Below, one piece after another: positions 5,492-8,346 of a stretch of DNA of 8,346 nt. Below the pieces are notes generated by a model. It did no database searches and was not told the DNA's origin. It saw only the letters and a program-made list of their open reading frames with translations. The translations under genes were made by a program, and so were the position numbers. This stretch comes from Dictyostelium discoideum (taxonomy: Eukaryota): assembly GCA_000004695.1 (NCBI GenBank), contig CH709160.1, positions 1-8,346 on the forward strand, in the 5' to 3' direction. Within the stretch, counting starts at the first letter, position 1, and each line of letters opens with the position of its first letter.

Positions 5492-5830
5492 CACAGCAAA
5501 GAAAAATGCACCTTTAAAGCCAATTTCAAGCAAATACAATTTAAATTTGCTTTAAATTGGCTTTAAATTTGCTTTTTAAAAAGGTAATTTTAAAGATATT
5601 TTTAAGGTCATTTAAAATTACATTAAAAATGACCTTTTAAATTTATTATAAAGCGGTTTTTAAATAATGTTTTAATCACTTTATAATAAATTTAAAAAAG
5701 TTATTTTTAATGTAATTTAAAATTACTTATCAATCCTTTTTTAAGCTTTTATTAATTATATTTTTAAAATACATTTTAAATGCATTTTAAATACATTTCA
5801 AATCAATTTTTACACTATTTATTTTAAATT
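5492..5830 (-). mobile_element. Element copy D: a divergent member or terminal region of the same family in inverted orientation, with the right-type terminus at 5492. It is possibly the 5' end of an autonomous copy that continues into the ORF at 6496.
   Basis: CACAGCAAAGAAAAATGCACCTTTAAAGC is identical over 29 nt to the reverse complement of A's right terminus. Downstream there is a variant motif, AAGGTCATTT, forming a perfect 10-bp inverted repeat (5604-5613 and 5627-5636), and further palindromes. The distal boundary is undefined. Confidence 0.5.
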
Positions 5831-5837
5831 TATTAAA

Positions 5838-5904
5838 AAAAAAAAAAAAAAAATAAGAAAATAAAAAAAAAAAAAAAAATTAAGAAAATTAAAAAAAAAA
5901 AAAA
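5838..5904 (+). repeat. Cluster of A-homopolymers (A19, A17, A13) separated by AAGAAAAT-like spacers. Further runs occur at 6079-6100 (A22), 6414-6432 and 6451-6464.
   Basis: Direct reading. These runs are typical of dictyostelid intergenic or leader DNA. Confidence 0.9.
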
Positions 5905-6495
5905 CTAAAAAGATAACCAAATTAATTTTAATTCTTTATTTATTTGTTTCAGTGGCAATTGAATTCTATTATTATTATTTTTATTAATTAATAATAAATA
6001 AGTGTTTCAGTTGCCTTGGGTTTTATATTATTTTATTTTAAATTTTACTTCTCATTTCAAAAAGCGAAAAAATATCAAAAAAAAAAAAAAAAAAAAAAAA
6101 TTTAATTATTTGTTTTGCATATTTATATTATAAGTATAAACATACATATAAAAAAAGATTTTTTATTTTTTATTTTTTATAATTAATAAACAATTAACGA
6201 GTGCACATGTATATTATTGCATTAGTGTAGTTTTACAATAAATTGGGCAGATTTTATAGTTTTTTTTTTTAATATTTTAAAAAGAAAAAGGTATAGACAG
6301 GGTCATAGGTTCCCCGTCATTTTTTGAAAATGGGGTATATCCCTCTAAATATAAAATTCTAAGTACTAAATCATATATCTACTTGCTATAATGCTAAAAT
6401 TTGAATAAAATGAAAAAAAAAAAAAAAAAAAACGTAAAAACTCGAGGAAAAAAAAAAAAAAAAATATTATTTTTAATTTCCAGCCAGCAAACAAA

Positions 6496-8346
6496 ATGAA
6501 TTTAAATAACATATCATGCATTAATTGCAGAGAAAAATTAAAGAATTTTAAAAATATTATTATTCATTATATTATGCATAAAAATATATGTCCATTTTGT
6601 CTTGCATATTACCGTTCTTATAAACAATTTTATGATGTAAATGGACATTTCAACACCAAAAAATGTAAAAATGAACAAAATAAAATTATTACAAATAATC
6701 AAAAAAGAGATAGCTTTTATAAAAAATTAATGGATATTACTGGTGAAAAAATAAAATATCCAACAAATGATCCAGATGACCCATGTAAACATTTATGTAA
6801 CCAAAACCAAGATGAAATTTTTTATCAAGAAAATAATGAAAATAATGAAAATAATCAAACAATTGATAATGAAGAAAATCATGATATAATTGGGTTGGTA
6901 CATAGTGAAGATGAAAACAATGAAATTAGAATAGATGAAAATGAAGCAAACATTAATAATGAAAATAATGAAAATAATGAAAATGAAAATGCTCAAAACG
7001 AACCAATAAATAATAATCTAAATAATAATTTAGATAATGAAAAATCAAAAAAAAAATTAAATGAAACTGAAATTGAATTTTTAATGTTGGGAATTGAAAA
7101 CTCAATAAGTTTAAAGCTACTTGAAAAATTTAAAAGTTTTATTGACAAAAATAAAACCAATTTAAATCAAATAAGATACACACCTCAATATATGGATAAA
7201 TTATTTATGGAAGATTTTCAAATAAAAGGAGAAACATTTATAAATAAAAATTATGATCACTCAATTTTTTATTTTGAAATTAAAAAAGTATTAGAAACTT
7301 TATTAAATAAAAAGCAATTTTTTGAAAGAATAGATTTTGATACAGATTTTGAAACTGGAATTTATACAAATTATAAAAGTGGTCAACAATTTAAAGATTT
7401 AAAAAATAAAAATAAAAATAAAATTGTTTTACTTAGAATATTCACTGATAGTATGCAGTGTCAAAACAAGAAAGATTATACTATAATGCTGGATATAGAA
7501 AATTATATTGGAAATGAATTTAAAAATAATAAATTATTATTATTTGTAGTACCAAATGATTGGTTACTTAATTTTCATCAAACAATTAGGGCATTGTTTT
7601 CATCTTTTATTGGTAATGGCTTTAATTTAATTATTGAAAATGAACAAATAGATGTTGTACCGTTTGGACTGACAATGGATATTCCAGAATTTAGAGCATC
7701 GTGTAAACTTAATGGACATAATTCAAATGAATATGCATGTCACACATGTGACAAACCAAGAGATGGTTTATTTATTTGCAAATCAGGTACATTAAGAAAA
7801 CAAGAAGATATTACAAATTTTCACTCCACCAAACCAAATTATGCTGAATTAAATGCTGATATAGAATTAAAAAAAGTATGGGAAAAAAAAGCAAAAGATA
7901 TTGGTATCAAAGGTGTGGACAGAGGGTGGGTCGAACCTTTGTCCATTAATTATTTAAAAACACAACCAGACATATTACATAATATTTTATTAGGTGTCGC
8001 ACAAAGATGTTTAAATTACATTTTTGATAAATATAAAAATAAAATTGCAAATTTTTTAAATAATTTAAAAAATGCAAAAATAATAGATAACAAACCAAAA
8101 CCTTCAATTTCACTATTTGCAAATAAGACAAGGAAAGGAAGAGAGAATAGATCAATATTATATTACCTTTTAATATCAATTAAAAATCAAATATCAAATG
8201 ATGATTTTTTAATTATGGAACAATTAGTAACTATATGTTTTAAATTATATAGTGACTCTTTTGATGAAAATGATTTAAATTCACTTCAAGTATTAATTGA
8301 ATCGTTTAATGCAAAAGTAAATTTAATTACTGAAACAGAAATAATG
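6496..8346 (+). CDS. Partial CDS (617 codons, no stop before the window end). The predicted protein has an N-terminal C2H2/BED-like zinc finger and an acidic NEN-repeat linker. Its C-terminal region resembles TNP2/En-Spm-type (CACTA/CMC superfamily) DDE transposases. It is a candidate transposase or transposase-derived gene.
   Basis: The first in-frame ATG follows a stop at 6406-6408 in A-rich context. I checked all 617 codons against the sequence and they are open. The N-terminus reads CINC-x12-H-x3-H followed by CPFC...H. There is a possible first catalytic Asp in LLRIFTDSMQC (compare the TDGFNPF blocks). The motif MDIPEFRASCKLNGHNSNEYACHTCDKP recalls the DFPAYGNLSGW..ACP.C block. The motif LSINYLKTQPDILHNILLGVAQRCLN recalls the LPYWK..DVMHIEKNV block. 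The family similarity is from memory and not confirmed by a search. Confidence 0.8.
   Translation, partial: MNLNNISCINCREKLKNFKNIIIHYIMHKNICPFCLAYYRSYKQFYDVNGHFNTKKCKNEQNKIITNNQKRDSFYKKLMDITGEKIKYPTNDPDDPCKHLCNQNQDEIFYQENNENNENNQTIDNEENHDIIGLVHSEDENNEIRIDENEANINNENNENNENENAQNEPINNNLNNNLDNEKSKKKLNETEIEFLMLGIENSISLKLLEKFKSFIDKNKTNLNQIRYTPQYMDKLFMEDFQIKGETFINKNYDHSIFYFEIKKVLETLLNKKQFFERIDFDTDFETGIYTNYKSGQQFKDLKNKNKNKIVLLRIFTDSMQCQNKKDYTIMLDIENYIGNEFKNNKLLLFVVPNDWLLNFHQTIRALFSSFIGNGFNLIIENEQIDVVPFGLTMDIPEFRASCKLNGHNSNEYACHTCDKPRDGLFICKSGTLRKQEDITNFHSTKPNYAELNADIELKKVWEKKAKDIGIKGVDRGWVEPLSINYLKTQPDILHNILLGVAQRCLNYIFDKYKNKIANFLNNLKNAKIIDNKPKPSISLFANKTRKGRENRSILYYLLISIKNQISNDDFLIMEQLVTICFKLYSDSFDENDLNSLQVLIESFNAKVNLITETEIM
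6829..7000 (+). repeat. Coding low-complexity (AAT AAT GAA AAT)n repeats giving NENNENNE... and acidic N/E-rich linker (about 6820-7060)
   Basis: Direct reading of the sequence. Confidence 0.85.

Follow-up and report, generated by a model that had tools for sequence, protein, structure and literature searches.

Positions 5492-8346 of an 8346-base stretch of Dictyostelium discoideum DNA (contig CH709160.1, positions 1 to 8,346, forward strand; the whole stretch is referred to here as the window) are in all likelihood the left 2.9 kb of a cut-and-paste transposon of approximately 5.0-5.2 kb, very probably of the DDT family, whose transposase is a distant member of the CMCT clade. This clade unites EnSpm/CACTA, Mirage, Chapaev, Transib, Plavaka, ESTA, Lanisha and RAG1, and is characterised by a C(2)C and an H(3-4)H motif lying after the second D but before the E of the catalytic residues, mostly 5'-CA..TG-3' termini and a target-site duplication (TSD) of 2-5 bp (Kojima, PMC12730594). 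The element fits the clade because all of these features were found here, namely an RNase-H-like core with a DDE triad, the C(2)C and H(3)H motifs, termini of the CA..TG type and a 2-bp TSD. The element itself is already known. What appears new is the superfamily assignment, the definition of its terminal inverted repeats (TIRs) and TSD, and the likeness of the transposase fold to RAG1; no paper assigning DDT to CMC (EnSpm/CACTA, Mirage, Chapaev), CMCT or EnSpm was found in the open-access literature.

A complete element is bounded by imperfect TIRs of about 30 bp, 5'-CACAGC...GCTGTG-3', with several hundred bp of subterminal repeats at each end, and holds an A-rich leader, an intronless open reading frame (ORF1) of about 830-840 aa and a three-exon ORF2 of about 275 aa. 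In the window, the left terminus CACAGCAAAG at 5492 is followed by subterminal repeats, leader and ORF1, in agreement with a preliminary description of the window made from its sequence:

5492 to 5521, plus strand: left TIR, approximately 30 bp and imperfect, consensus CACAGCRAAGAAAAAnnCACCTTTAAAG, recognised by motif enrichment and by the start of homology
5522 to 5810, plus strand: subterminal region of 11-12-bp direct and inverted repeats (TTTAAAnnnnn), found by Tandem Repeats Finder
5811 to 6495, plus strand: A-rich leader up to the ATG, with poly(A) and 27-nt repeats
6496 to 8346, plus strand: ORF1, the first 617 codons of the predicted transposase, a stop-free frame open at the window end

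Seven loci with ORF1-type genes (L001-L007) were compared with the window. Colinearity with positions 5492-8346 was seen in L004 at 98.5% identity, in L005 at 98.9% (in an internally deleted copy), in L002 at 91% and in L001 at 82%. The alignments to these four loci all start at 5492 itself, the flanks upstream being unrelated, and this terminus is therefore a real element boundary. Within the subterminal region, Tandem Repeats Finder detected arrays of period 11, 12 and 22, the 11-12-bp repeats occupy 5540-5643 and 5763-5810, and the repeat families D2-D6 and the inverted repeat I2 were located in 5522-5810. This region is common to the element at 5492 and the small non-autonomous elements of the same family, and comparison with the ends of L001 small elements gives 72% identity over about 310 bp. 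The leader, presumed to contain the promoter and 5' untranslated region, is likewise colinear in other copies (98.9% in L005, 98.5% in L004 and 82% in L001).

Three ORF-type copies were complete and ended in an inverted terminus matching the left one:

L002, 4218-9251: 5034 bp
L001, 4979-10135: 5157 bp
L005, 7004-11126: 4123 bp, internally deleted

Eight short elements (325-1878 bp) with the same ends brought the number of complete elements to 11. All 11 had the termini CACAGC...GCTGTG, and in most of them the left end matched the inverted right end in 24-25 of 30 bases. An exact 2-bp TSD (TA, TT, AA, TG or GG) was present in 10 of the 11, a 3-bp TSD in none (binomial P approximately 8e-10 at local base composition). 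The 5.2-kb copy of L001 sits in a short element of the same family (L001 4700-4978 and 10136-10558), of which an uninterrupted paralogue (L001 2776-3474) lies 1.5 kb off in inverted orientation, as a local inverted duplication. Since this empty-site paralogue reads GTTTTAATAGA, AA was duplicated on insertion of the L001 copy. A strict CACTA element was considered and rejected, the termini being CACAG and the TSD 2 bp rather than 3; as for the other traits of EnSpm/CACTA, subterminal 11-12-bp arrays are present and the 275-aa ORF2 of complete copies resembles nothing, with no Pfam match and no similarity to TnpA. ORF2 lies downstream of ORF1 in the complete copies and has three exons.

ORF1 has 33 close homologues, every one an unnamed protein from D. 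discoideum or D. cf. discoideum. Two subfamilies can be told apart among them, one sharing 70-96% and the other 40-48% identity with the window ORF, and the identity between the subfamilies is about 49%; full-length members have about 715-840 aa. Approximately ten ORF1 gene models occur per strain, many of them truncated. Between the window and other copies dN/dS of ORF1 was 0.18-0.40, indicating purifying selection, and L004 8834-11362 holds an intact 842-aa ORF in a 98.5% identical copy at another site. The autonomy of the window copy, which the preliminary description had proposed, would follow from these near-identical copies rather than from the window itself. Recent activity is suggested by copies that are 98.5-98.9% identical and occupy different sites, and it would be relevant when strains are compared.

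Purifying selection would also be expected if the ORF were a host gene, domesticated or never mobile, standing beside repeat debris with a TIR at 5492 that belonged to a neighbouring small element, and the window does lie in a dense repeat nest where unrelated termini are abundant. This explanation is nevertheless contradicted because terminus, leader and ORF form one colinear multi-copy unit, which recurs amid unrelated flanks in no fewer than four further loci and is delimited by an inverted terminus together with a TSD. The number of gene models per strain, many truncated, and the lack of any single-copy syntenic orthologue point the same way, and we consider a host gene extremely improbable. 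Neither of two findings named in advance as damaging to the transposon reading, a single-copy syntenic gene and an unmatched distal end, was thus obtained.

ORF1 was confirmed as the only long intact ORF of the window, the runner-up having 239 aa, and its closest intact copy has about 842 aa. The three sequence blocks and the N-terminal Cys/His finger reported in the preliminary description were all in place, and the recognised motifs are as follows (A1 is a profile of ten family members spanning the two subfamilies; A3 is a mixed alignment):

6517 to 6666, plus strand: two N-terminal zinc-finger-like motifs (C2H2 and C2HC, aa 8-57), from their invariance in A1
7429 to 7458, plus strand: first catalytic Asp block LLRIFTDSMQ (D318), invariant in A1
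7669 to 7755, plus strand: second catalytic Asp D395 (LTMDIPEF) and C(2)C (C415, C418), all three residues invariant in A1
7966 to 7995, plus strand: PDILHNILLG block, the [D/E]xxH...G motif of the insertion domain, with H and G more than 90% conserved in A3
8134 to 8154, plus strand: KGRENRS block, aligned with WKGSEWRN of distant CMC proteins, its Glu (E542 of the full-length homologue P0003) more than 90% conserved in A3

The finger residues are C8-x2-C11-x12-H24-x3-H28 followed by C32-x2-C35-x15-H51-x5-C57, and all eight Cys/His were invariant in the ten members of A1. Pfam gave only zinc-module matches below threshold for the fingers, which are presumed to be the DNA-binding domain. The first Asp block, LLRIFTDSMQC, is at aa 312-322 and D318 aligns with the TDG/DG Asp of Transposase_21-carrying proteins. 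The second, MDIPEF...YACHTC, is at aa 394-418; its C(2)C reads C415-H-T-C418, begins 20 residues after D395 and is conserved to more than 90% over 27 sequences including distant CMC proteins. The PDILHNILLGV block (aa 491-501), which had been listed with these two among the landmarks of DDE transposases, is a conserved motif of the insertion domain and does not supply the third catalytic residue. That residue, the Glu of NFHLLLHY...SAETFEAQ, is found in relatives about 249 residues after the second Asp. The stretch with this Glu and HxxxH begins approximately 27 codons past the window end and is outside the window; in P0003 the H(3)H motif is H612-LLL-H616, just past the equivalent of the window end.

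The A1 profile was searched against 1.84e9 representative proteins and reached, apart from fragments belonging to the family, 53 distant proteins, nearly all aligned to profile positions 488-735 and most of them starting to align at the PDILHNILLG block. Most of these matches derive from Logan, ENA or JGI assemblies. When 51 of the distant proteins were scanned with Pfam at E <= 0.001, seven matched Transposase_21 (TNP2), four DUF4218 and five DUF1258, and the others nothing. Ten were scanned individually; P0052 (39.1 bits) and P0089 (32.3 bits) were the only ones to pass the gathering score of 28.6 on Transposase_21, and DUF4218 and DUF1258 matches were below threshold. The A1 profile itself reaches P0052 at E 2e-7 and P0089 at E 2.7e-4. 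A single colinear alignment with P0089 pairs D, D..C..C, DxxH and HxxxH..G..S..FE (family first, P0089 second):

lriFtDsm with iWnTDGi
mDiPefRa...yaChtC with gDaP-vRa...ySCniC
pDilHnillG with pEymHslclG
nfHlllHy...wGapkytSaerFE with nnHqllHy...wGnlqliSafsFE

Over the alignment of 27 sequences, in P0003 numbering, the positions C407, C410, R426, H487, G492, E542, H612, H616, G625, S631, F635 and E636 were at least 90% conserved. A word-indexed homologue search with A3 returned only D. discoideum proteins. As judged from such comparisons, the link between ORF1 and the CMC proteins appears at the profile level only, and it is at this level that the proposal of a CMC/TNP2-like DDE transposase held.

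The same proposal had also named KDZ (Kyakuja/Dileera/Zisupton) and Plavaka-type transposases on the basis of motif similarity, and CA..TG termini are indeed frequent in KDZ elements as well (PMC12730594). This part was not borne out: the 51 distant proteins scanned gave no match to a KDZ family of Pfam, and in place of the 7-8-bp TSD made by Kyakuja and Zisupton (PMC12730594) the element has one of 2 bp. A KDZ-type transposon is accordingly as hard to credit as a host gene.

An AlphaFold model of P0003 averaged 68.5 in pLDDT; over residues 230-680 the block means were mostly 70-95. In the model D310 (equivalent to D318) is on the strand 302-314, D387 (equivalent to D395) comes just after the strand 375-385, and E636 is in a helix. 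The best solved matches of the model were RAG1 (Foldseek E 6e-10) and Transib (E 1e-4), with a sequence identity of 10-13% to the RAG1, BbRAG1L and Transib structures. To our knowledge, no structure of a CMC transposase has been solved, and RAG1 and Transib may therefore be just the nearest solved folds.

The heptamer of the recombination signal sequences (RSS) of V(D)J recombination is CACAGTG, and the terminus CACAG (5492-5498, and all other termini) equals its first five bases; RAG1 is at the same time the best structural match. Together with the split C(2)C...H(3)H motif in common, this identity could be taken to mean that ORF1 encodes a transposase of the Transib/RAG1 type and not of the CMC type. 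The labelled matches are, though, Transposase_21, DUF4218 or DUF1258 and none belongs to a RAG1/Transib family, the structural likeness is open to the reservation just given, and the TSD is 2 bp here but 5 bp in Transib. For the clade as a whole, a range of 2-5 bp is given (PMC12730594). A Transib/RAG1-type transposase is on balance quite improbable.

A more serious contender, to which we give somewhat less than an even chance, is that the element represents a separate and unnamed lineage of the wider CMCT assemblage, of the rank of ESTA, Plavaka or Lanisha, and is not EnSpm, Mirage or Chapaev proper. The top distant matches (P0051, P0053 and P0055) carry no Pfam label and direct Pfam scans fail. 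Several of the other matches do fall to Transposase_21, DUF4218 or DUF1258, and Mirage elements also make 2-bp TSDs, both of which count against a lineage of its own. The CACAG termini and the non-specific 2-bp TSD are unlike CACTA with its 3 bp, and ESTA and PlavakaA also have a 2-bp TSD, ESTA being likewise recognised through similarity to RAG1 (PMC12730594). Placement in a named lineage or in one of its own would depend on a phylogeny with reference sequences.

Several points weigh against a CMCT transposon of the DDT family as the identity of 5492-8346. The catalytic Glu lies outside the window, as do ORF2 and the right terminus. Scanning of the 617-aa translation against Pfam, which the preliminary description had suggested as a check, gave no significant match, nor did hmmscan of the full-length P0003 and P0019, and Transposase_21 and DUF4218 matched none of the three even at E <= 10. 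Sequence searches of the PDB, with single sequence and with profile, found nothing. The distant matches of the A1 profile are weak (E 4e-8 to 8e-4) and mostly without a Pfam label. An hhalign comparison of A1 with the alignment A2 gave 99.9% probability, E 1.9e-34 and 508 columns, reaching the N-terminal half of the core, and is partly circular in that A2 was picked with the A1 profile. The structural model, modest in its mean pLDDT, drew on the same distant sequences. One complete element, element A in the window, has the flanks TA|GA, one mismatch off a 2-bp TSD. DDT was matched by species, size, copy number and context, and the name DDT-A is tentative. Finally, we infer transposition itself, the role of ORF2 and the chemistry of excision.

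For a DDT element of the CMCT clade, the mechanism may be depicted as follows: The ORF1 protein combines N-terminal zinc fingers with an RNase-H-like core containing D318 and D395, in which a large helical insertion between the second Asp and the Glu carries the split C(2)C...H(3)H motif. The transposase, possibly aided by the ORF2 protein, would bind the TIRs and subterminal repeats, excise the element and insert it by a 2-bp staggered cut. The 2-bp TSD at nearly every complete copy is the step of this scheme that is directly visible in the data. Small elements of 0.3-1.9 kb with the same ends, such as A and C in the window, would be non-autonomous passengers moved in trans. Placement in CMCT provides named catalytic residues, a defined TIR and a 2-bp TSD. 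Taken together, these offer a specific mechanism, a criterion by which insertions can be annotated and targets for mutagenesis. In addition, the group that gave rise to RAG1 gains an amoebozoan branch. For transposon specialists the placement is the extension of a known family and no surprise.

All catalytic and zinc motifs are retained in the second protein subfamily (L003, L006 and L007), which may be DDT-B. No termini belonging to it could be located in these loci; the copies become homologous to one another only from 160-360 bp upstream of the ATG. Several copies of this subfamily were broken by short elements with CACAGC termini.

The remainder of the window is a repeat nest typical for Dictyostelium, with 26% G+C overall. 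The 15-mer terminus motif CACAGCRAAGAAAAA occurs five times compared to 0.2 expected from shuffles, and the following features of the family were recognised upstream of 5492 and in L001:

2521 (plus), 3304 (minus), 4193 (plus), 4867 (plus) and 5492 (plus): copies of CACAGCRAAGAAAAA, by motif count
2521 to 3304, plus strand: element A, non-autonomous and complete at 784 bp, with TIRs of this family and both termini present
4193 to 4866, minus strand: right-end fragment of a second ORF-bearing copy in opposite orientation, from alignments to L005 and L001
4867 to 5455, plus strand: element C, non-autonomous, with left terminus and truncated right side, containing repeat families D16, D18 and D3
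2700 to 2850 and 5040 to 5090 (element C), and L001 3230-3350 and 4800-4930: degenerate tRNA-like module with B-box-like motifs

Elements A and C were correctly described as non-autonomous relatives of the ORF-bearing element, having the same ends and shared subterminal repeats. Element A is 90% identical to a 758-bp element in L005 (12872-13629). Decayed and frameshifted genes of Ty3/gypsy-type long terminal repeat retrotransposons with stop codons occupy 1-2520 and 3305-4170, with RVT_1, RT_RNaseH and RT_RNaseH_2 above Pfam thresholds. The reverse transcriptase (RT) reading frame is split by element A between ...FDSGVFEENV and SYSAPVFIA..., and the RT gene is itself frameshifted. Element A was rejected as a clean example of a TSD, given its TA|GA flanks and the frameshifts of the interrupted RT gene.

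Element C has an internal deletion relative to element A and aligns to a small element of L005; no inverted terminus for it was found ahead of 5492. The fragment at 4193-4866 begins with a terminus at 4193, continues without about 400 bp of subterminal repeats into minus-strand 3' exons of ORF2, and is cut off by element C at 4866. Within it, identity to L005 10670-10165 is 92.6% over 4267-4778, and identity to L001 9612-9180 is 70% over 4327-4777; each of these two targets covers the 3' end of ORF2. Between the truncated element C and the terminus at 5492 there are 36 bp (5456-5491, TTTTGTTGTAGGGAATTTTCCATAAAATTTCACTACAGTA) that are part of neither element; a partial match is to a different repeat of L005 (minus strand, near plus-strand position 14,000). 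Their interpretation as a continuation of the fragment at 4193-4866 was rejected.

No tRNA or other RNA family was found in the window by Rfam and default ARAGORN. The short non-autonomous elements carry the degenerate tRNA-like module with B-box-like motifs GAGTTCGAAGCC (plus) and GGGGGATCGAATCCC (minus), partly lost from element C through deletion. A tRNA-like structure, c[2774,2844], was called by ARAGORN at a relaxed threshold (ps80) only, in a run that gave three more dubious calls.

A far-reaching and, in our opinion, unlikely extension would be that DDT are the first CMCT-clade (RAG1/Transib-fold) transposons characterised in Amoebozoa, with a biology built around chromatin and Pol III landmarks. 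It is suggested in part by the degenerate tRNA-like A/B-box module of the short derivatives, which could draw tRNA-targeting retrotransposons and so help centromeric repeat nests to grow.

The DNA transposons of D. discoideum comprise three families, Tdd (Ginger-like, PMC2836005), DDT and thug. In a 2017 review none of their transposases was found to resemble known transposases (PMC5633606), and the CMCT assignment made here goes beyond that statement. Also in contrast to the review (PMC5633606), Dictyostelium has a recognisable pogo-like transposase, since a pogo/Tigger-like gene with a match to Pfam DDE_1 (E 7e-18) was found in L001 of D. cf. discoideum at 10650-11885, with copies at 3817-4239 and 4147-4569. 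This gene is interrupted exactly at a CACAGC-type terminus.

Compared with RAG1, ProtoRAG (BbRAG1L) and Transib, the element differs in its 10-13% sequence identity, in the lack of a RAG1/Transib Pfam match and in a TSD of 2 bp instead of 5; nor was a RAG2-like partner recognisable. ESTA and PlavakaA, fungal CMCT members compared by description (PMC12730594), share with it the 2-bp TSD, C(2)C/H(3-4)H and a remote similarity only at the level of RAG1. ESTA duplicates TA specifically, whereas TA, TT, AA, TG and GG were duplicated here, PlavakaA has the termini TGT..ACA, and there is no TET/JBP passenger gene in the present element. With CMC elements there are in common the DDE core, C(2)C and H(3)H, the [D/E]xxH..G and KGxExRN motifs, CA..TG termini, a short TSD, subterminal arrays, a second ORF as in En/Spm and homology at the profile level. 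The differences from CMC are the missing direct Pfam match, CACAG instead of CACTA, a TSD of 2 bp compared to 3 bp in plant CACTA, an ORF2 unlike TnpA and an amoebozoan host.

The closest known system is DDT, of which Glockner et al. in 2001 reportedly described the ORF-bearing DDT-A and DDT-B and the short DDT-S of D. discoideum. DDT accounts for about 0.9% of the genome by one source (PMC5633606) and for about 1% by another, in which its share of the centromeres is about 20% and it is enriched in centromeric clusters with DIRS and Skipper retroelements (PMC2665215). It is still termed a "putative DNA transposon", with a DDT-B consensus of 5471 bp, and DDT-B holds a tRNA-like A/B-box motif that is a reported target of integration of the retrotransposon TRE5-A (PMC9012585); the small elements described here carry a tRNA-like motif too. 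In a comparison by description and not by consensus, no difference from DDT is known. The element of the window agrees with it in species, size, copy number and the mixed centromere-like repeat nest, and the two ORF-bearing subfamilies with their short derivatives match the naming of DDT as A, B and S.

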